IMG/VR virus record: IMGVR_UViG_3300022752_000030
Coordinates: 1 to 64,000 of that record
Reading direction: 5' to 3' (one strand)
DNA: 64,000 nucleotides
Source of the DNA: a virus
In this document: piece after piece, positions 16,977 through 33,424 of the stretch
Numbering within the stretch: position 1 is the stretch's first letter
Layout: every line of letters begins with the position of its first letter
Position numbers and translations under genes: made by a program
The notes under the pieces: generated by a model
Seen by the model: only the letters and a program-made list of their open reading frames with translations
What the model was told of the DNA's origin: nothing
Databases searched by the model: none

Positions 16977-17190
16977 TTTTTATTTCTATCCAGTTATTAT
17001 AAATTTTATGACGACTATAACTTTTAGTTTTTATTTCAAGTTCTTTAAAATGATCATTGATATACTTCGCTAAGCTTTCATCATCTATTCCATGGACTTT
17101 TATGAATAAAATTTCAGGAGTTATTTTAACTCCCATAGGTACACCAAAATTCTCTTTTATCAATTTAACAATATCCAGATATCTCGTCAC
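16951..17190 (-). CDS. Hypothetical protein
   Basis: ORF track; overlaps both neighbours. Confidence 0.5.
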   Translation of the reverse strand: MTRYLDIVKLIKENFGVPMGVKITPEILFIKVHGIDDESLAKYINDHFKELEIKTKSYSRHKIYNNWIEIKNVDNKLSS

Positions 17191-17555
17191 TTTGGCAATT
17201 TCCTACTTCCCATTGGCACCATAATTGGATTATATCTTTTTTTCTTTCTAGGATGGACACCAGGTTCACCACCTTTTCCTCCAGTCCCTGCAATTGCACC
17301 CGAACCCACGACATTTGCAGGTCCTGCAACAGCAGCTGCACCATCTTCTTGAACAGCTTCTTCTGAAGTGGATCTCCAACCGCCACCCATTGATTTATAT
17401 TTTTTAGATGCCCAAGCATTAGCATAAGCGGAAGGATAAACAGCAAATTTAGATTTAGCTGCAGCTTTAGCACGAGCCCACTTTTCAGGTTGTGTAGGCT
17501 TATTCTTTTCATCTAAGATTTCGGCTTCATTTATAAATTCAATGAATGTTTTCAT
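17187..17555 (-). CDS. Putative internal head protein (capsid-targeting N-terminus)
   Basis: MKTFIEFINE; basic YPSAYANAW...GGGWR domain. Confidence 0.65.
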   Translation of the reverse strand: MKTFIEFINEAEILDEKNKPTQPEKWARAKAAAKSKFAVYPSAYANAWASKKYKSMGGGWRSTSEEAVQEDGAAAVAGPANVVGSGAIAGTGGKGGEPGVHPRKKKRYNPIMVPMGSRKLPK

Positions 17556-18056
17556 TTATTTTGTCCTAACATTTATTGCTTTGCCACGGCGTTCTGGATT
17601 TGGATCTTCACGGCGTTTTCTTTGTGCTGCTTTTGCTCTACCTTCTTTACCTAAAGCTTGTGCTTTGGCCTGAGGTAAGCACTTTGGTTTACCTTCTCCT
17701 GGTTCTCTAGCACAATCTCCTTTGATATTGCCCTTTGTGTCCATTCGAACCCATTTTTGTTTAAACCATTGTCTTAAATCTTCATTAATCCAATCATCTG
17801 GAGTTTTTCCATGTTTAGATTTAAAATCATTGTGTAACTCTTTGCCTGTTATTCCGTGGTCTTTAGATATTTTCATCATCAACTTATCGATTGTGTCATA
17901 GTCATGACTATCTAATTGTTTTAAACCATCTTCTAATTCTTTTACATGATCTTCTTTTCTACAACTACCAGCAGTATATGCTGGTTTACCAGGAACTGGT
18001 TTAAATCCTGACCAACATCTGCCCTTTTCGTTGATAAAAGACTTAAAAGATTTCAT
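17556..18056 (-). CDS. Putative internal head protein (capsid-targeting N-terminus)
   Basis: MKSFKSFINE; CWSG..GSC module; EDLRQWFKQKWV..KPKCLP basic module. Confidence 0.65.
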   Translation of the reverse strand: MKSFKSFINEKGRCWSGFKPVPGKPAYTAGSCRKEDHVKELEDGLKQLDSHDYDTIDKLMMKISKDHGITGKELHNDFKSKHGKTPDDWINEDLRQWFKQKWVRMDTKGNIKGDCAREPGEGKPKCLPQAKAQALGKEGRAKAAQRKRREDPNPERRGKAINVRTK

Positions 18057-18439
18057 ATGTTTAGTAATATCTGTGCGACTTTGGGATCTAATGCTATATC
18101 AGATGAATATATTGTTTTTCCATTAATACCCTTAACTTCATCGGGCATTATTCTTAAAAAATCTAAAAACGTTTTCAATATATCATAATCACGTTCGTCA
18201 ATTTTATAGAATAATATTCTTGATGTCGGTTCAGCTCCAAAAACATTATTCAATAAAATAATGTGATTCAATATCAGGCGTTCTTTAAGATAACCTGTTG
18301 TTTTATATCTACGAAATAAACGCTTTAAATATTTCGTGCGTTTAATGTCACCTTCAAATTCGGACATTATACAATGCGGTGATGTGTAGCATTTCATAGC
18401 GTACATCACGAAATTATCTTCATTCAATTCATCAAACAT
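18053..18439 (-). CDS. Conserved hypothetical protein of T4-like phages
   Basis: FDELNEDNF..YAMK.Y..P.C...EF..D..R.KYLKRL..ERLILNH. Confidence 0.7.
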   Translation of the reverse strand: MFDELNEDNFVMYAMKCYTSPHCIMSEFEGDIKRTKYLKRLFRRYKTTGYLKERLILNHIILLNNVFGAEPTSRILFYKIDERDYDILKTFLDFLRIMPDEVKGINGKTIYSSDIALDPKVAQILLNI

Positions 18440-18450
18440 AGTAACAGAAT

Positions 18451-18468
18451 GGGCACCAAAAGGTGCCC
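18451..18468. terminator. Hairpin GGGCACC-aaaa-GGTGCCC, probable terminator or processing site
   Basis: Perfect 7-bp GC-rich stem in intergenic gap. Confidence 0.55.
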
Positions 18469-18476
18469 CCTTTTAA

Positions 18477-19064
18477 TTAAACACCAGCGTAATATGTTTG
18501 TATATTGCTTGTATTACCAGACAATGTATTTGCTGCTGTGGGATTAGCTAATGTAACCAAAACTTCTGTTTGTACACGACCAGAGCGGCCGCCAGTACCT
18601 GTTGTCACATAAACCCAGCCTTGGTGTGCAGTAGCGTGATTGGTTGCATCACCAAATGTTGCATTTGCAAGTCTTGTACCAGTAACTAAAACTGTATCTT
18701 GATTATAAGTGCTTGATCTTTCGCCGGCTGGATAAGATATAGGCGTATCGAATTCCAACACAGTTCCGGAAGGAACACTTGCCAAAATATTTTGAGAAAG
18801 TACTACTGTATTAGCAGTAACACTTGCAACAGTTGTATTTGATTTAAAGAAACCTGGTTCACCACTTGTACCAACATTTAGTGCAACAACTGACATACCA
18901 GCAACAATTGCTGAATTTGAAACATCGGTGCTTGTACCAAAATACAAAGTATTTCCACTTGCAACGGTATTTCCTGTTGCGAGTGTTGTTGTAAAGCGAA
19001 CTTGTCTTTCTTTTGACCAATGTGGCTTATCGTAAATTGAATCTGTATTACCCCAAGATGGCAT
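18477..19064 (-). CDS. Putative virion structural protein
   Basis: MPSWG start; Thr/Gly/Ser-rich; HQGWV...GR...EVLV; late promoter GATAAATA near 19099-19107. Confidence 0.6.
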   Translation of the reverse strand: MPSWGNTDSIYDKPHWSKERQVRFTTTLATGNTVASGNTLYFGTSTDVSNSAIVAGMSVVALNVGTSGEPGFFKSNTTVASVTANTVVLSQNILASVPSGTVLEFDTPISYPAGERSSTYNQDTVLVTGTRLANATFGDATNHATAHQGWVYVTTGTGGRSGRVQTEVLVTLANPTAANTLSGNTSNIQTYYAGV

Positions 19065-19108
19065 GTTATTCTCCTTTTAACCGTGTGGGTTTGTTACCTA
19101 TTTATCTA

Positions 19109-20305
19109 TTATTTCTTTTCTTCTTTTTTCTTGTCGTCTTTTTTGTCATCCTTTTTTGTAGGATCAGGTTGACCTGGACGAACTCTCATTGACGGATCAA
19201 TTTCAATTGTATCTCTCTTTTCACCTGTTAAGGTTGTTCCACCAGACATAACCGCAGAAGCCTTTGGTTTATCTTCACCCATATCATCTTTTTCATCAGA
19301 CTTCTCAAACTTAGGTTTTTTACCATAAGTTGCAACAGACTTATCTTCTTTTTCATGGTCATAAATTTCTTCTTTCATGCCATGTTTTTTGTACAAAGAC
19401 TTAATCAGTCTAGCTGATTTCGACATTTGTTTTCTCTTACTTTCTACTTCCATACCAACAGTTTGCGTTGCAGCCATTGGATCTTGAAATTTGTCTTCTT
19501 CAAGTTTTTCTTTGCGATTATTATAATCTAAAAGTTTTTTGATGGTTTCAATGTGACCCTGCAAGTAACCGTGTTGCAATCTCATATCAGGTTCGACCAT
19601 TTGAACCATTCTGTCAATTTGATCTTTGATGTTTTGTGCAATCCAAAGGTAACCCAAATCGTCCTCTTTAGGAGAACCTTTTTTCTCCTTTAAGTGTTTT
19701 TCTATGAAGAAAATTGCGTCTTGTAGTTTAGCCATACCCTCGACTAACTCATAAGAATCTTCATCAACTTTTTCACCTATATCAGTATACAATTCGGTTG
19801 CAATTGGACAAATATCAAAATATTTTGGTTTATAGTCAAAAACTTTAAATTCAAATTCTTCTTCTTTTTCTTCCCATTGCAATTCTTCTTTGAGGTCAGC
19901 AATGAAATTATAATCATTCATTGTGAGTGTGCCTCTATTTCGTATTTCTATCAATCTCTCGACAATACGATGTAGTTCTGGATCATCTTTCACATCCTCA
20001 CGGGCCAATTCTAAAATACGAATCATCAAAGGAATATCCAATGTAATTGTATCTTTAACATCGGCTGATTCCATCATGTGATCTTGTTTCCACTTCAAAA
20101 ATTCTCCAGATTTTGAATGTGAAACTTTAGTATCTTTTGAAACAAATTTAGGATTAATTCCTCTAGACATTAAATATTTGTCCAAAGCAGCGTCCTCGTT
20201 TATATTAGATTTTGCAGACCATGGATCACGTGGATTAGTACCGAATGTCGGTTTTTGACCAATATTCTTTTTGACCAACGATTTAATTATTTGCGCTTTA
20301 CTCAT
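19109..20305 (-). CDS. Hypothetical protein, probable processed head protein
   Basis: DTITLDIPLMIRILELARED module; several hydrophobic-x-E linkers. Confidence 0.6.
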   Translation of the reverse strand: MSKAQIIKSLVKKNIGQKPTFGTNPRDPWSAKSNINEDAALDKYLMSRGINPKFVSKDTKVSHSKSGEFLKWKQDHMMESADVKDTITLDIPLMIRILELAREDVKDDPELHRIVERLIEIRNRGTLTMNDYNFIADLKEELQWEEKEEEFEFKVFDYKPKYFDICPIATELYTDIGEKVDEDSYELVEGMAKLQDAIFFIEKHLKEKKGSPKEDDLGYLWIAQNIKDQIDRMVQMVEPDMRLQHGYLQGHIETIKKLLDYNNRKEKLEEDKFQDPMAATQTVGMEVESKRKQMSKSARLIKSLYKKHGMKEEIYDHEKEDKSVATYGKKPKFEKSDEKDDMGEDKPKASAVMSGGTTLTGEKRDTIEIDPSMRVRPGQPDPTKKDDKKDDKKKEEKK

Positions 20306-20314
20306 TTTAATACC

Positions 20315-21856
20315 TTACTCAGATGTGCCTGTTTTACCCATCATTTCATTTTTGATTCTTTCCATTGATTTGCGAGCCATTTCTTTTGCTCTACTCAAAG
20401 GTTTATTTTCGTTTGTCACAAAAGGAACAGTATCATCTTCAGGTCTTTTTGATTCTTTAACGGTTGATTTAACAATACCGCTGAATCTTTTGTTAGCTTT
20501 CTGTGTTAATTCTTTACCAGCTTTAACATTACCTGAAGCATAATGTTTTGCAGCTTGTTTGTCTAAAGCAGAAGCCTGTGTGCCGGCAGCTTTCCTATAT
20601 GCTTGATGTGTTGCTGGTGATAATTCATCAAGAGATTCGACTTCTTCTTTTACTGGAATATGACGCTCAACGCGAGAAAGTCTGCAACCTTCTTTGCATT
20701 TTTCATGAGCTTGTTTGATAGCATCATCATCACTTTTTGCTACCAATAAATTCATACCTGTCCATTCACCCTTATCGTTTTCATAATGAGCAGCATGAGT
20801 ATGAGATTCATTTTTCTCATTTAATTCATATTCTTCGTTTGCTGTTCGCATTGCTCTTATTACAGCAGGATGATCAGAAAGTCCGGGTTTCATTTTATCG
20901 ATGGCTTTAAGGGCACCAGTTAAGTTGCCTCCTTTGTATCTTTTATCGTTAATGATACCGATAGCCATTTTAACATCTCTATCAGAATGTGTTTTATTCA
21001 ACTCATCAAGAGACTCAACTTCCTCACCACGCATTTTCTTTGCATAATCAATCTGTCGTTGAGCTTGACCTTCTTTGCCTTTGGTGATTCCTTGGCCTCT
21101 AAGTCTACGATCAGCATCCATTGCTCCCGCAAATTGTCTTATGGTCTTTCTAGGTGCAGAACTATAACCACTTTCTGGTTTTTTATTCCAAGCATCCATT
21201 GCTTTCGTGCCTCTGTCTTTCACAGATTGAAGTGCTGCACGACCTGCTGGTGTATCACCAACCTCGTCAATCTGCTCAACTTCTTCTTTAGCCATTGCTT
21301 GTTTAGTTGCAGTTGCATACATTACATCTTTCCAACGCTTACCATATTTTTTCTTGAAGTAAGACATATTCTTTTTCATCGACATCACAATATTTTCACG
21401 CTTTTTCATTTCGTCATCTGTCATTTCTTTTTCGCTGACCATAAAATCAGCAAAATTATCATCAGACTTATTTAAACTTTCAATTAATTTATCTTTAAAA
21501 GAATATTCTTCTTTTTTAGTGTCGTCAGTTGACTTAACTGGTTTACGTGAATAAACAGTACCAGTAGAAATCTTTTTAGAATCAAAACCAGCTTTCTCGC
21601 CTGGTTTAGTTGGTAATTCAGACTTTCTATTTTTCCAATCAAACGGACTTGATTCTTCAATCGCTTCACCAGCAGAAACTTCTTCACCTTGAACTTTTAC
21701 AGGATATTTTTTACCTTTAAATGTGAAGTGTGTTTCACCAGATTTGTGAGCAGCATATGCCGCTTTGCGTAAACCAGTTTCGTCTAATTCCATTTCATTG
21801 GCCATAACTTTTTTAACTGCTTCAGAAATTGAATTTACTTTTATTTTGTCGTACAT
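20315..21856 (-). CDS. Putative internal-head polyprotein with repeated protease-site linkers
   Basis: EEVEQIDE, EEVESLDE x2, EEYELNE separate short basic modules. Confidence 0.65.
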   Translation of the reverse strand: MYDKIKVNSISEAVKKVMANEMELDETGLRKAAYAAHKSGETHFTFKGKKYPVKVQGEEVSAGEAIEESSPFDWKNRKSELPTKPGEKAGFDSKKISTGTVYSRKPVKSTDDTKKEEYSFKDKLIESLNKSDDNFADFMVSEKEMTDDEMKKRENIVMSMKKNMSYFKKKYGKRWKDVMYATATKQAMAKEEVEQIDEVGDTPAGRAALQSVKDRGTKAMDAWNKKPESGYSSAPRKTIRQFAGAMDADRRLRGQGITKGKEGQAQRQIDYAKKMRGEEVESLDELNKTHSDRDVKMAIGIINDKRYKGGNLTGALKAIDKMKPGLSDHPAVIRAMRTANEEYELNEKNESHTHAAHYENDKGEWTGMNLLVAKSDDDAIKQAHEKCKEGCRLSRVERHIPVKEEVESLDELSPATHQAYRKAAGTQASALDKQAAKHYASGNVKAGKELTQKANKRFSGIVKSTVKESKRPEDDTVPFVTNENKPLSRAKEMARKSMERIKNEMMGKTGTSE

Positions 21857-21870
21857 GATTGTCTCCTAAA

Positions 21871-22284
21871 TTACCATGCTTTGCATGACCAGTATCTTGC
21901 TTTTGTTCTTGGACCGGGTGTTGCACAACGGTGTCGTGCTCTAAAACTTCTACGGCGAGCAGGATTATGTTTTTTAATTGTCATATTCTTGTCACCAAAA
22001 TTAACTTTTACAACTCTACCTGACGGTGATTTTACAAAAACTTTAGATTTTTTAACATCACCTTTCATTGGCTTACCCAAAGGAACTTTACGTCCTTGAT
22101 ATTCAGCTTCATCTAAAGGTTCTGATTCCAAATCCCAATCGATAGAATCGATTAATTGTTCTTCGTCACCATCAAAATTAAATTCATCGGAAGAAACTTC
22201 TTCCCACAATTGTGAAACTTCCTCTTGAAGATATGCAGGTTCATCCGAATATTCTTCTGATACAAATTGACTAAAAAATTTCAT
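21871..22284 (-). CDS. Putative internal head protein: acidic pro-region plus basic domain
   Basis: MKFFSQFVSE; LDEAEYQGRKVPLGKP..RRRSFRARHRC..ARYWSCKAW. Confidence 0.7.
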   Translation of the reverse strand: MKFFSQFVSEEYSDEPAYLQEEVSQLWEEVSSDEFNFDGDEEQLIDSIDWDLESEPLDEAEYQGRKVPLGKPMKGDVKKSKVFVKSPSGRVVKVNFGDKNMTIKKHNPARRRSFRARHRCATPGPRTKARYWSCKAW

Positions 22285-22285
22285 T

Positions 22286-24172
22286 TTAAATTCTCTTTTT
22301 CTTTTTAATTATGATTCCAATATTTTTATCTTGATCCTTATATGATTGCATGGGTTCTTTATTACTTGCACCACCCAATGTTCCACCTACTCCCATATCT
22401 ACTGCACCCGGATCATCAATTGCTTCTTTTACTTTTTTTCTAAAATTTTTAAAATCTTTTTGTTCTCTGTATGTGACATCGCCTAATCCTGACATTGGGT
22501 ATACTGTTCCCTGTTGGCGTGTGTCAAATTCTGGTCCTATTCCAGAAACATTCCTCATTCTTTGATTTACTGTCGGTGAATCTGATGTTTTTATTCTTTT
22601 GGCTTTGTCTTTCTCTTTGTCTTTTCTGAAGTTGGATTCTTTTGGTTCGGGGAAGACTTTAATGCTGGGACCTTTTTCTTCACTATACGTTTTGAAGGTG
22701 TAGGTTTTTGTTCTTTTTGGAGCATCCCATTTGATGTTGTCGGCGTTGGAATCTCCTGCTCTGTTGTCTGGAGTGATGTCGTCTGGACCGGCTGCTCTTT
22801 CAACTGAGTTGTTTCTTTTGTAAACTCCTGCGGAAGCTTCTCGCTTTTCGTTGAGTTTTTGAATAAATTTAGAATTTTTCTTAACATTATCTTCCTTAAA
22901 CAAATATTTAACCGATTCATTTATATTTAATTTTCCGTGATTTTCCATCCAAGAAAATGCAACATCAGTATAATTTCTTTCGTCAATAAATCTATTTATT
23001 ATTTGATAAGTGTCTGTAATATCTTCTTCAATTGATTCGAGTGTTGCACTATTATCAAAATTAATAAATTTTGCAAAATTTTGACGGTAAGATTCTTTGC
23101 TAGCCTGAGCTAGTTCCCACTTTTCAAATCTAACTGACTCCGAAACCATTTTAGCTAAACTTTTATTTCTGATTTTACTGGTTTCATTTGTCGTGTCAAC
23201 AAAAATCATGATCGTATCGTAACCAAGTTCTTCAAGTTCTTCTTTGATTGTGATCATTTTCGAATGATCGTCCGCAGGTCCATTAATAATTAAAGGACCT
23301 CTAGATCGAATCGCTTCTCTGCGATAATCTGTTGTTTTTTCGGATAACTTTTGTTTATCCATTAAATAATCAAAAGCTTGAATTGAGTTTAATTCGACAG
23401 AACGGTTTTCAGCGATTGCTTCTCGAATTATAATATCTTTTCCTGATCCTGGACCACCGGTAACGAAAATAGCTTTAAATAAACCTCTATTATAGTCCTC
23501 ATGTAATCCCATACCTTTGCGTGTATCGTGCATTAACTCTTTGGCATGTTCATCGGACACATGAGAAGGAACACCTTTTCTAAACTCCTTAAAGTCTTTA
23601 TTTTTGGCATGTTCACGCATTTTGCTTCCGGACATACCCTCTGTGCCTTCGGCATCAGGATCACGATGGCCGGCTGAATGAATTTTTATACTCTTAAAAT
23701 GATATTCTCCGTGTCCTGCTTTAACACCATTATACTTATGTAATAGATCATGCATCTCTTTAACACGATCCGATCCGACGACAACGTGAAGGTGAGTTAC
23801 ACCACTCTTATATGCCGATACCGCATGGTGTAATATGGTTGGTTTTTCTTTTGTAGCGGCAGTAATTTTTGGTTTAGTTGTGATGCGTTGCAGTGATGAT
23901 TTTATTGAAACAGCTTCTTCTATTTTATTAGGTGAAGCCATATATCTAGTTAGATGCTTGATTTTTTGTTCAGAACTTAATGGATTTTTCTTACTATCTT
24001 GTGAGTGAGAAACGATAACTTCATATGATGCATTATGTTTTTTGGCAATCTCTTTAACTTTATTGATTAGCTTTAAATGTCCAGTCGTTGGAGGATTCAT
24101 GCGACCAAATGTGATCACATGATGTTTCTCATATTCTTCTTGTTCTTTGACTAATTCTAAAAATGACTTCAT
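22286..24172 (-). CDS. Cytidylyltransferase/NMNAT-like domain fused to P-loop kinase-like domain, with capsid-targeting N-terminus
   Basis: MKSFLELVKE; TFGRMNPPTTGH, KNPL, VVGSDRV, RDPDAEG..GMSGSKMR; then AIFVTGGPGSGKD. Confidence 0.8.
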   Translation of the reverse strand: MKSFLELVKEQEEYEKHHVITFGRMNPPTTGHLKLINKVKEIAKKHNASYEVIVSHSQDSKKNPLSSEQKIKHLTRYMASPNKIEEAVSIKSSLQRITTKPKITAATKEKPTILHHAVSAYKSGVTHLHVVVGSDRVKEMHDLLHKYNGVKAGHGEYHFKSIKIHSAGHRDPDAEGTEGMSGSKMREHAKNKDFKEFRKGVPSHVSDEHAKELMHDTRKGMGLHEDYNRGLFKAIFVTGGPGSGKDIIIREAIAENRSVELNSIQAFDYLMDKQKLSEKTTDYRREAIRSRGPLIINGPADDHSKMITIKEELEELGYDTIMIFVDTTNETSKIRNKSLAKMVSESVRFEKWELAQASKESYRQNFAKFINFDNSATLESIEEDITDTYQIINRFIDERNYTDVAFSWMENHGKLNINESVKYLFKEDNVKKNSKFIQKLNEKREASAGVYKRNNSVERAAGPDDITPDNRAGDSNADNIKWDAPKRTKTYTFKTYSEEKGPSIKVFPEPKESNFRKDKEKDKAKRIKTSDSPTVNQRMRNVSGIGPEFDTRQQGTVYPMSGLGDVTYREQKDFKNFRKKVKEAIDDPGAVDMGVGGTLGGASNKEPMQSYKDQDKNIGIIIKKKKRI

Positions 24173-25170
24173 TCTTCCGACTTCTTAAATGTTAATGGTT
24201 TATGACCTAATGTTTTGGCCATTGCGTGCAGGTGTTCATCATGATCCAAATCGACATGACTTTTATCTGCATGTTTGACCATAAATTGTATTGTACGTTT
24301 TTTTGGATCGGATGTTTTTTGTCTGACTCTCCATTGGCCTTTACCTGTCAATTCAGGCAATCCGTGGCCAGTCTTATCTTTTTCACCAACTCTATATGTT
24401 CCGTGTTTACCGACTTGTAGGACATCAACATGATGATCCTTTAAGTAAGCATTTGCTGGTTTCAAATCATCATGTTCAAAGTTTACATTTTTAGCCAAAG
24501 GACCACCAGGTACCAATCCAGTAGGTTTATGGTGTTCGTTCATGTGGTCTATGATACCTTTTGACTCGATGTGTGCAGCATAACCTGGTCTGTTTTTTCT
24601 ATTTTCTTCAGGAATGTGCCAACCACCCTTCTTTTCATCATAAGCAATAGTTAATTGACCAAAAGCAGCAGTTTTTCCTGCTTTTGTTTCGCCCTGTAAC
24701 TCACCTTCGTTGTGTACTTCGCCTTTATGTTTCGTATTTAATTTTTTATTAACCAAATTAAAGTCGTTACCACTTGTAAATCCAGCAGCTTCACCGTGCA
24801 TCAAACCATGGTCTTTTAATCTTTTTACGAAATTTTGTTCATATTCAAAACCTTTATTAGATTTTTTTTCTCCTGGTTTTAAAATTTTCGAAACAGGTAT
24901 TACGTGTTTTCTTCTCGTAACATCATCCGTAGCATGAACGTAATATTTTCCATCAATCAATTCTGTCTTGTGTAATTTTAATTTTGATCCGGATGGAACA
25001 TCTTCGTGATCTTTACCCATAGTGTGAGTATAATCTTTTGATCCTAGATGCGGCATTACATATTTTCCCAAATGTCTTTCTTTGTCGATACCTGCACCTT
25101 TAATGAAACCCACACCTTCAGCTTCATTAATCATTTCACATTCATTTAAGTGTTGTAAAAATGTTTTCAT
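24169..25170 (-). CDS. Putative PD-(D/E)xK-like nuclease with capsid-targeting N-terminus
   Basis: MKTFLQHLNE; GFEYE..AAG..D..GETK..FGQL; similar to 32675-33424. Confidence 0.55.
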   Translation of the reverse strand: MKTFLQHLNECEMINEAEGVGFIKGAGIDKERHLGKYVMPHLGSKDYTHTMGKDHEDVPSGSKLKLHKTELIDGKYYVHATDDVTRRKHVIPVSKILKPGEKKSNKGFEYEQNFVKRLKDHGLMHGEAAGFTSGNDFNLVNKKLNTKHKGEVHNEGELQGETKAGKTAAFGQLTIAYDEKKGGWHIPEENRKNRPGYAAHIESKGIIDHMNEHHKPTGLVPGGPLAKNVNFEHDDLKPANAYLKDHHVDVLQVGKHGTYRVGEKDKTGHGLPELTGKGQWRVRQKTSDPKKRTIQFMVKHADKSHVDLDHDEHLHAMAKTLGHKPLTFKKSEE

Positions 25171-26339
25171 TTTCTAACCTTTAATAAATTTGCTCTTGCA
25201 AATTCTTGGCGATCAACTAATTTAGTAGGTTCACCTGCATGGTTAATAACAAAGCCTTCTGGACCAGTTCTTTTGCCATCTATATGATGTTCTAGTCCAC
25301 CTTCATGTTGATTTAGTGTGTGTACCAAGACATTTTTAGCTTGTTGTAAATGATGGTGCATCTTCAGGAGATTTTCATAATGATCTTTGTTTTTCTCAAT
25401 ATGACTTAGATGACTATTTGCTTCCGATTGTTTTCTAGCTTGTCCTGCCGGCGTTTTTAATTTTGAAGCTGATTTATTGTATTGATTTTGTATGTGTTTT
25501 TTCAGTCCTTCAGCAGAAGGAACTTCACCAGTTCTTACTGTATGGTTAATGTAAGTCGAAAGGTGTCCAGCTTCACCTCGATGTGGCTCAGTTGATTTGT
25601 ACATTGTGCCTTTATGCTCATCATGTATTTTTCTTGCGGCTGACATGTGGTCATTGAATTTTTCTTGATCCGATTCTGAATAATGTACGTTTTTCGTATC
25701 GTGTTCGGCTGATTTGTGCCAAACATCAGGATGCTGATAAAATTTATGCATGTCGGGATGAGGATCGGCACCCATCGTACTCAGGTTTTTTCCGTGATAC
25801 TGGGTGTGTACAATTACACCAAGTTTTGCTCTCCTTATTTTATCAGCCTCATCACCTTTTGCGGTATATGTGATTGTATTTGGAGTAAATGATACACCTT
25901 TTTTTGTTTCTTTTTTGTCACCATCAGAAAACATTAGGTCACCTTGGTAAACTCCTGACTTCGGTGCAATCTTTTTGAGATGATTTAGTCCTGCGTGTAA
26001 TTTGTCCATCAAACCGGGTGCGTGTCCGTGGTTTTTAACTATATCTGCATGTGTATAGTTTATTTTTGGATTTACATTGAAAGCTGATTTTGATGCAACA
26101 AAGAATTTACCGTTTTCTGGATTATGACCAAAAACAACGGCAGGAGATCCATCATATTTCATCGTCAAATGAGAACTGTTGCCACCTGACTTAATATGTT
26201 CGTGAGCTTGATTTAACGCATTGTAAGTGTGTTCAAAACCTTTTGATCCGTGAAGTAAAGGCCGGTCTTCAGCATGATGTATATGCTTAAGTTTTTCACC
26301 TTCAGTTTCTTCAATCAAAAAATTTAAAAAAGATTTCAT
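25167..26339 (-). CDS. Ligase-like covalent nucleotidyltransferase (DUF6267-like) with capsid-targeting N-terminus
   Basis: MKSFLNFLIE; TMKYDGSPA (motif I), YQGDLMF, PEGFVI (IV), KLVDR (V). Confidence 0.7.
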   Translation of the reverse strand: MKSFLNFLIEETEGEKLKHIHHAEDRPLLHGSKGFEHTYNALNQAHEHIKSGGNSSHLTMKYDGSPAVVFGHNPENGKFFVASKSAFNVNPKINYTHADIVKNHGHAPGLMDKLHAGLNHLKKIAPKSGVYQGDLMFSDGDKKETKKGVSFTPNTITYTAKGDEADKIRRAKLGVIVHTQYHGKNLSTMGADPHPDMHKFYQHPDVWHKSAEHDTKNVHYSESDQEKFNDHMSAARKIHDEHKGTMYKSTEPHRGEAGHLSTYINHTVRTGEVPSAEGLKKHIQNQYNKSASKLKTPAGQARKQSEANSHLSHIEKNKDHYENLLKMHHHLQQAKNVLVHTLNQHEGGLEHHIDGKRTGPEGFVINHAGEPTKLVDRQEFARANLLKVRK

Positions 26340-26445
26340 CTTACCTCTTAGAATACAACACACTTTGGTTGTCCATGAAGTTATTTATAATACTTTTTGA
26401 TTTATATCACAAATTGTGAAAATATTGTGTCTGATATATAACAAT

Positions 26446-32674: not shown

Positions 32675-33424
32675 TTAGGAGAAACAATTTAAATTTAAAT
32701 CTTTTTTGATGATATTAACACTTTTACCGTCTACTGGTGCAATGTTAAAAGGAGATTTTTTACTTGATGGAATTGAAAATTGCATTTCAAATGTAAATTG
32801 ATAGTTATCACTTCCTTTATATTGAACTCTTGCTCTGTATGTTGCTTTAGCTGAAGAACCAAATCTAGGCACATCTTTTAATTTTAAAGGATTTTTAGAT
32901 CCTAACAGATAGAAACCGTGTGTACCTACGTTAACATAATAAGTATCTTTTCGATTGTAATATTGTTCAATTTTTGTTGATGGTATTTCACCTCGAATAT
33001 CATGAAATGTATCTCTATCTCTTTCGTACTGTTGTTTTTTTGTTAGTTTACCGGCTGTTGCTTCCCACAAATCATCTTTCTCTCTTTTAAATGGAATTTC
33101 TTTCCATTCTTTTTTTATAATATCAAATAATCCAACTTCATCGGCTAAATCTTTAATAAACATTTTTTCAGTATCATCATCTTTGATATCACCAAATTTC
33201 CAAGGATTGGACTTATCTTTCGTGTCATATTTCAATACAAGAGAACCAGCTGAAGCTGCTGTTATTTTTAACTCACATCCAGCTTTAATTTTTTTGTGTT
33301 CCAACATTAAATCTGGCTGATCACTACCAGCACCAGCAGGAGTAAAATTTTTAGGTACCAGGCCCATAGGTTTTAAAATGTTTGCTGCATTTTTTTCATA
33401 TTCAAAACCTTGTTGTGCCGCCAT
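32675..33424 (-). CDS. Putative PD-(D/E)xK restriction-like endonuclease
   Basis: GFEYE..QPDLML..CELK catalytic pattern; late promoter GATAAATA at 33443-33450. Confidence 0.6.
   Translation of the reverse strand: MAAQQGFEYEKNAANILKPMGLVPKNFTPAGAGSDQPDLMLEHKKIKAGCELKITAASAGSLVLKYDTKDKSNPWKFGDIKDDDTEKMFIKDLADEVGLFDIIKKEWKEIPFKREKDDLWEATAGKLTKKQQYERDRDTFHDIRGEIPSTKIEQYYNRKDTYYVNVGTHGFYLLGSKNPLKLKDVPRFGSSAKATYRARVQYKGSDNYQFTFEMQFSIPSSKKSPFNIAPVDGKSVNIIKKDLNLNCFS

Follow-up and report, generated by a model that had tools for sequence, protein, structure and literature searches.

Targeting of proteins into the capsid by a short N-terminal tag is textbook knowledge for bacteriophage T4, where small internal proteins are known to carry one. 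The T4 internal proteins IPII and IPIII both start MKTYQEFIAE, as record NC_000866 confirms, and the first ten residues of IPIII suffice for encapsidation, with residues 4 and 7 weighing most in targeting and residues 8 and 10 in processing by the gp21 protease (PMC9026906). Here we describe a block of genes with a similar tag (positions 17187-26389, minus strand) in a window of viral DNA, by which we mean the whole stretch of 64,000 nucleotides that was analysed, namely the first 64 kb of one contig of 111,237 bp (IMG/VR record IMGVR_UViG_3300022752_000030) that is about 67% complete. An earlier sequence-only reading of this DNA had proposed that six genes carry a T4 capsid-targeting-like N-terminus and that the phage packages and injects large enzymes (ligase-like, NMNAT/kinase-like and nuclease) rather than only small inhibitors. 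We put the probability at roughly 0.7 that the block is a late head-internal set, the tagged cargo of which would be packaged, cut and ejected as active enzymes in the manner of T4.

One of the closest described systems is T4 Alt which, like the cargo proposed here, travels in the head, undergoes trimming by gp21 and is ejected to work before phage genes are expressed, although it is an ADP-ribosyltransferase with its own 7-residue propeptide and C-terminal processing, and the enzyme classes here are different (PMC9026906). Cyanomyoviruses lack alt (PMC2984593). As T4 itself packages and ejects Alt in addition to IPI-III, the concept is not new, and the phrase 'rather than only small inhibitors' was an overstatement. 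The giant phages phiKZ and SPN3US have a cleavage motif and propeptides that differ from the tag described here. Many of their head-internal proteins, enzymes among them, are matured by the prohead protease and ejected (PMC5694885, PMC10052503). What appears to be new is that the concept reaches a distant family and these classes of enzyme, and that it connects with virion proteomics so far unexplained; in the literature searched we found no prior report of tags resembling a capsid-targeting sequence (CTS) in cyanophages or Kyanoviridae, or on DUF6267 proteins, and one may exist.

A ten-residue tag on six genes of one block

The six open reading frames (ORFs) are all present with the starts that the sequence-only reading had given them (Table 1). 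They are closely packed in one block on the minus strand, and their starts fit the pattern MK[STF]F..[FLH][ILV].E. The scan of N-termini that had been proposed as a check was made with a strict and a looser pattern on every candidate start of every ORF of the whole contig (139 ORFs), and under both patterns it yields exactly these six tagged starts and no others. Calculated from the frequency of each residue by position in the other 117 genes, the combination of K2, F4 and E10 is expected 0.08 times in 123 genes, and is observed six times. Five of the six tagged proteins have an isoelectric point (pI) above 9.1, the genome median being 6.3.

Past residue 12 we see no similarity among the six proteins by BLASTP, which rules out paralogy of the genes, and the 30-nt stretches that encode the tag differ in their A/T-rich codons among the six genes with the residues kept, which leaves a DNA-level repeat or recombination cassette unsupported. 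Because of these two observations we regard the tag as a feature of the proteins, arising neither by paralogy nor from a DNA repeat. A resemblance by chance, or as a remnant of gene duplication, is suggested by the frequency of MK- starts in this A/T-rich genome (K2 is present in 19% of genes), but it was tested and is rejected on the excess of observed over expected starts, on the lack of similarity past residue 12, and on the retention of the tag both by distant homologues and by other, different proteins of relatives (see below).

The tag follows that of the T4 internal proteins in its length of ten residues, its M-K start, and its aromatic residue at position 4, hydrophobic residue at 7, aliphatic residue at 8 and Glu at 10. 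Positions 4 and 10 are F and E in all six window tags; in ascending order of coordinates, position 7 is F, F, F, L, H and F, and position 8 is I, I, V, V, L and L. Such residues suit a T4-type tag, in which positions 4 and 7 are aromatic or hydrophobic. Among 110 distinct tags from relatives the conserved positions are 4, 7, 8 and 10, together with K2. The tag of the 122-aa protein is the closest of the six to T4, with 7 of 10 residues identical to MKTYQEFIAE.

As in T4, a gp21-type protease, late promoters and a variable set of unrelated, mostly basic proteins accompany the tag. The prohead protease gene lies at contig positions 65921-66565 (Peptidase_S77 match 1.8e-38 at 66065-66517), adjoined by scaffold, major capsid, portal, tail tube, sheath and terminase genes. 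The capsid protein retains a T4-like N-terminal propeptide with an L-x-E site: its L-N-E52 aligns a few residues from the T4 cleavage site L-T-E65, and also near L-T-E of the cultured relative S-CREM2. A complex prediction of the prohead protease with residues 1-40 of the 390-aa tagged protein (Pfam DUF6267) gave a score of 0.00, which we count neither way. The matching protease, together with a late promoter and the tagged proteins found in virions of cultured relatives (both described below), argues that the tag is a T4-type capsid-targeting and processing signal, as had been proposed.

There are also clear differences from T4. The mature cargo is not homologous to IPI-III; among the cargo proteins there is no Pfam or PHROG match to the T4 internal-head-protein families, and the cargo falls in other families. 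The T4 internal proteins are of 8-20 kDa, whereas the cargo here includes three large enzymes, 333-628 aa in length. As a T4-like myovirus of Kyanoviridae type, the contig belongs to a distant T4-like family; its tagged genes form one block beside the helicase and lysis region, and the targeting and cleavage are putative. The closest relatives of the DUF6267 protein are found in Kyanoviridae (Methylophilales phage Melnitz, Pelagibacter phage HTVC008M and several hundred cyanomyoviruses) at about 30% identity; no near-identical DNA was found in cultured phages.

The window has two copies of the late promoter box TATAAATA, fewer than the 7.8 expected. The minus strand of the contig has six copies, all intergenic, one of them ahead of the scaffold gene and others ahead of neck or tail genes. 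Of the 75 related contigs that have the upstream sequence, 64 show TATAAATA at a distance of 31-57 nt before DUF6267 starts, and NATAAATA is found in 10 more. NATAAATA, published as the late promoter of cyanomyovirus S-PM2 (PMC2984593), stands before the genes for capsid, tube and sheath and before that for a 195-aa protein within the block (at 19106). Sigma-70 promoters are not enriched in the block (42 against 44.5 expected). At the level of promoter motifs, late expression of the tagged block is indicated. A perfect 7-bp GC-rich hairpin (GGGCACC-TTTT-GGTGCCC, 18451-18468) stands directly after the 195-aa gene and is terminator-like on both strands; it probably splits the block into two late transcription units.

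Tagged proteins in virions and genomes of relatives

The published virion proteome of S-CREM2 comprises 52 proteins (PMC10665884), and we scanned the whole genome of this phage (222 ORFs) with the tag pattern. Four ORFs match: gp6, a SAM hydrolase (MKDFDSFLEE); gp13 (MKDLHSFLTE); gp14, an APH-like kinase with a GTG start (VKRFDAFLTE); and gp154, a cytidylyltransferase (MKNFSSFLTE) that is homologous to the 628-aa tagged protein of the window (32.5% identity, 5e-24). All four are in the virion proteome (Fisher one-sided p=0.0023), and undetected neighbours of the tagged ORFs carry no tag. Peptide counts are low, with three for gp154 and one for gp13. A term search of the S-CREM2 paper (PMC10665884) shows that 'N-terminal', 'targeting', 'propeptide' and 'internal proteins' go unmentioned. 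S-CREM2 gp12, which is annotated as Cas9-like and is detected in virions, has no tag at residue 1 but reads L-R-F-A-S-F-M-A-E at residues 17-25, and either its start is mis-called or the tag is displaced.

In a second cultured relative, S-SZBM1, the cytidylyltransferase _140 (MRFRQFIIE), also a homologue of the 628-aa protein, is confirmed in virions by mass spectrometry (MS; PMC9146016), and the untagged DUF6267 protein _141 that adjoins it is absent from the virion protein list. This phage also has two small tagged proteins, _191 (MKSFKSFLSE) and _192 (MKTFKQYITE), encoded between the terminase genes and beside an MS-confirmed virion protein. Several small tagged proteins, including the 166-aa protein of the window, share a Cys-x-x-G-aromatic...Cys stretch soon after the tag.

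A tag of this kind is carried by the NMNAT/cytidylyltransferase, SAM hydrolase and APH-like kinase proteins found by MS in virions of S-CREM2, S-SZBM1 and S-SCSM1 (PMC10665884, PMC9146016, PMC9602691), and NMNAT-like proteins are often detected in cyanophage virions (PMC9602691). The cytidyltransferases of Syn10 and P-RSM4 start MKKFSAFLSE and MKKFNAFLIE. The cytidylyltransferase domain of the cyanophage proteins is homologous to that of the 628-aa protein (32-38% identity), but these proteins are shorter (286-390 aa), lack the kinase-like domain and have untagged DUF6267 neighbours.

To place the tag among closer relatives we drew on 545 relatives of the DUF6267 gene in IMG/VR, of which 80 loci at 70-80% identity were read (1,028 same-strand ORFs). 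On these 80 contigs the tag is present on 77 of 80 DUF6267, 39 of 52 transferase-kinase and 13 of 13 nuclease homologues, and on some homologues of two small proteins; for genes that are untagged in the window (DUF7207, glycosyltransferases, helicase etc.), at most 1 of about 360 homologues has it. In relatives the tagged proteins are 63 to 888 aa long, and for several of them this genome has no counterpart. Pfam searches with ten other tagged proteins of relatives find only DUF6321, DUF5872 and one further cytidylyltransferase-like domain. On DUF6267 the tag persists to about 33% identity among 50%-identity representatives, with E10 in at least 90% of the aligned sequences and a variable linker between the tag and the conserved domain.

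Both AlphaFold models (390-aa and 333-aa proteins) place the tag outside the fold, as a short helix of low confidence that is predicted to be amphipathic. Such a helix might serve a purpose that has nothing to do with the capsid, by docking to a cytoplasmic complex or associating with a membrane, or the N-terminus might simply be a leader that is friendly to translation initiation, as its A/T-rich codons would allow; T4 gene 61.1, which lies among replication genes, has a similar start (see below). We consider these possibilities very improbable, as the residues are kept among the six genes with varying codons, the invariant Glu10 after I/L/V is in keeping with a protease site but not with a leader, the tag is significantly associated with virion detection in S-CREM2, and a late promoter stands ahead of the block.

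Predicted enzymes and other genes of the block

The 390-aa protein matches Pfam DUF6267 at 4.5e-100. Across 68 DUF6267 sequences, down to 33% identity, K61 of a KxDG motif and E361-G362 are invariant, and D63, G64 and K373 are each kept in at least 90%; we infer that E361-G362 and K373 may represent motifs IV and V of the covalent nucleotidyltransferases. The best fold matches of its AlphaFold2 model (predicted local distance difference test, pLDDT, 92.9; residues 1-13 disordered) are RNA ligases, namely NgrRnl (5cot; Z 9.0 over 185 aa, root-mean-square deviation 3.9), Trl1 (8.2) and REL1 (8.2), with T4 Rnl2 at 8.0 and Rnl1 at 7.4, Z values that are middling by the tool's own yardstick. Foldseek puts DNA ligases in its top rows, at E 0.018 or worse. 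The protein falls into no curated ligase family (DUF6267 only in Pfam, none in NCBIfam) and has no sequence match in PDB. Because the fold scores are modest we name it only 'ligase-like', and for this label, which was that of the sequence-only reading, the invariant catalytic motifs and the RNA-ligase fold matches of the model give modest backing.

Many DUF6267 homologues are fused to an HxGH transferase domain, in either order and in proteins of up to 1,246 aa, and the 390-aa and 628-aa proteins (cargo 1 and cargo 3) are therefore functionally linked. DUF6267/HxGH proteins are a modular, virus-only enzyme family. Related Atlas clusters of these proteins add PAP2 phosphatase or NTP_transf_2 domains.

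The HxGH domain of the 628-aa protein is generically cytidylyltransferase-like (Pfam CTP_transf_like 2e-07, 31.7 bits with a cut-off of 21; TIGR00125 passes; PHROG cytidyltransferase 7e-60). The more specific identity as an NMNAT is not established, with TIGR00482 at 17.7 against 112 and TIGR01526 at 14.9 against 341, both far under the cut-off. Residues ~225-430 contain a Walker A motif (GGPGSGKD) and match Zeta_toxin (16.2 against a cut-off of 22.3) and AAA_33 (13.4 against 27) weakly in Pfam, and Atlas clusters sharing the architecture of this protein carry both Zeta_toxin and AAA_33.

The nuclease label is the one most clearly backed. D136, E161 and K163 of the 333-aa protein are invariant in 63 homologues, giving a D...(D/E)xK triad, and residues 105-320 of its AlphaFold2 model (pLDDT 88.3; residues 1-18 disordered) match HhaI endonuclease (6uke) with Z 11.2 over 174 aligned residues, the next matches being Hjc (6.1) and I-Ssp6803I (5.9), which points to a restriction-endonuclease-like fold. 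By fold match, residues 26-102 form an SH3/Tudor-like barrel. A distant, weakly supported paralogue of the nuclease domain is encoded elsewhere in the window (249 aa, 32675-33424, minus strand; BLASTP E=0.002, 236 residues). Neither the tag nor the SH3-like barrel is present in it, its gene has a NATAAATA box ahead of it (33450), and together with the 333-aa protein it makes a natural tagged/untagged pair. Searches of PDB by sequence with the three enzymes give no match or a marginal adenylate-kinase match. Of the structure searches, VIA-align was more informative than Foldseek, with which neither model matches anything in PDB at E <=0.001.

Coordinates of the block are collected in Table 1. 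The 390-aa ORF could reach as far as a GTG at 26363, but an AGAGG ribosome site accompanies the ATG at 26339, which is also where the homologues start.

Table 1. Features of the tagged block, in window coordinates
Feature	Coordinates	Strand	Remarks
Late promoter box TATAAATA (T4-type)	26382..26389	-	43 nt upstream of first tagged gene
Cargo 1, predicted DUF6267 ligase-like covalent nucleotidyltransferase, 390 aa, MKSFLNFLIE	25167..26339	-	tag codons 26310-26339
Cargo 2, predicted SH3-like barrel + PD-(D/E)xK nuclease domain, 333 aa, MKTFLQHLNE	24169..25170	-	tag codons 25141-25170
Cargo 3, HxGH cytidylyltransferase-like + P-loop (GGPGSGKD) kinase-like + basic tail, 628 aa, MKSFLELVKE	22286..24172	-	tag codons 24143-24172
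Cargo 4, 137 aa, acidic N-half, basic Cys-containing C-half, MKFFSQFVSE	21871..22284	-	tag codons 22255-22284; phrog_7595
Untagged Lys/Glu-rich basic protein, 513 aa, pI 9.2	20315..21856	-	no tagged homologue in 30 relatives
Untagged Lys/Glu-rich protein, 398 aa	19109..20305	-	one module stands alone as a tagged protein in relatives
195-aa protein, in the position of the cyanophage 'S-layer domain / virion structural protein'	18477..19064	-	synteny with Melnitz, HTVC008M, S-SZBM1
DUF7207 protein, 128 aa, untagged conserved neighbour	18053..18439	-	Pfam DUF7207 2.3e-35; 0/30 homologues tagged
Cargo 5, basic, 166 aa, pI 9.7, MKSFKSFINE	17556..18056	-	tag codons 18027-18056
Cargo 6, basic, 122 aa, pI 9.9, MKTFIEFINE	17187..17555	-	tag codons 17526-17555

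No match above threshold is found in Pfam or NCBIfam for the three small tagged proteins or for the two Lys/Glu-rich ones: the 137-aa protein matches no Pfam family, and the 122-aa protein has a DUF5872 match that is under threshold (E 0.027). The C-terminal part of the 166-aa protein resembles S-CREM2 gp160, a virion protein detected by MS (E 3.5e-6). The 195-aa protein has weak sequence similarity to its positional counterparts (E 3e-4 and 0.005).

Residues 77-139 of the untagged 398-aa protein occur as a stand-alone tagged protein of 170 aa (MKSFKTFITE) in four related contigs, at 66-73% identity. This hints that the long 398- and 513-aa proteins are modular and are perhaps cut by the prohead protease, and the 513-aa protein may possibly be a member of the packaged set.

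These two Lys/Glu-rich neighbours are also scaffold-like, which bears on a different fate for the tagged proteins, that the tag brings them to the prohead core but that they act there, or are degraded and expelled as are gp22, gp67 and gp68 of T4, and would not reach the next host as active enzymes. Core proteins of T4 are likewise gp21 substrates and mostly leave the head (PMC9026906), and the low peptide counts of S-CREM2 gp154 and gp13 would be in keeping with such a fate. We regard it as improbable, however, as tagged enzymes are found in CsCl-purified mature virions of two relatives, the cargo retains invariant catalytic residues for which a scaffold filler would have no need, and the CTS-tagged proteins of T4 are ejected (PMC9026906).

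A proposed route from prohead to new host

From the evidence above we infer, with good support, that the tagged proteins of this phage are packaged. In the model that we favour, the tag would dock the protein, mainly through residues 4 and 7, on the scaffolding core of the assembling prohead late in infection, and the gp21-type protease would cut after Glu10 at [I/L/V]-x-E to free the mature protein inside the shell. The mature proteins would then remain among the packaged DNA and exit with it at the next infection, and the cargo (three enzymes and three small basic proteins) would be active before any phage gene expression.

Several points weigh against this model. In T4 the residue after the cut is Ala or Ser, whereas after the presumed cut here it is often acidic or basic (Glu or Lys), and we found no observation of E10 cleavage or of ejection for any member of Kyanoviridae. 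The tags of HTVC008M are degenerate, cyanophage copies of DUF6267 have no tag, and the small tagged S-SZBM1 proteins _191 and _192 are absent from the 30 MS-confirmed proteins of that phage. T4 gene 61.1, situated among replication genes, also begins MKTFKEFIKE, and to our knowledge there is no report of its product being packaged. A packaged nuclease, moreover, must be restrained from cutting the phage's own DNA, for which we have no explanation here.

With regard to gene 61.1 itself, it is a hypothetical gene of 54 aa (NC_000866, 18966-19130) between the primase and helicase genes, with a near-perfect capsid-targeting-like start, and the tagged block of Kyanoviridae likewise stands just downstream of the gp41 helicase gene.

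The likeliest role of the cargo would be in counter-defence or take-over of the host. Healing and sealing of cut nucleic acids is one form that this could take, suggested by the presence of a kinase-like domain together with a ligase-like enzyme, and nucleotide-cofactor chemistry is another, although the odds run against either one taken singly. More doubtful still is a fuller proposal, in which the tag would be a readable address label for the injected proteins of T4-like marine and freshwater phages and would mark a healing-and-sealing kit (P-loop kinase, HxGH transferase and RNA-ligase-like enzyme) plus a nuclease, which would neutralise RNA- or DNA-cutting host defences at entry, ahead of all phage gene expression.

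The same kind of tag that is known from the small internal proteins of T4 marks large enzymes in distant, very abundant T4-like phages of aquatic bacteria, and it offers a mechanism for the recurrence of NMNAT-like transferases, a SAM hydrolase and a kinase in purified cyanophage virions. If the tag proves reliable, the injected proteins of these phages would become predictable from genomes and metagenomes by means of ten residues, which would provide a catalogue of the take-over and counter-defence functions of the first minute of infection, and the tag would be a natural one for loading foreign proteins into these phages.

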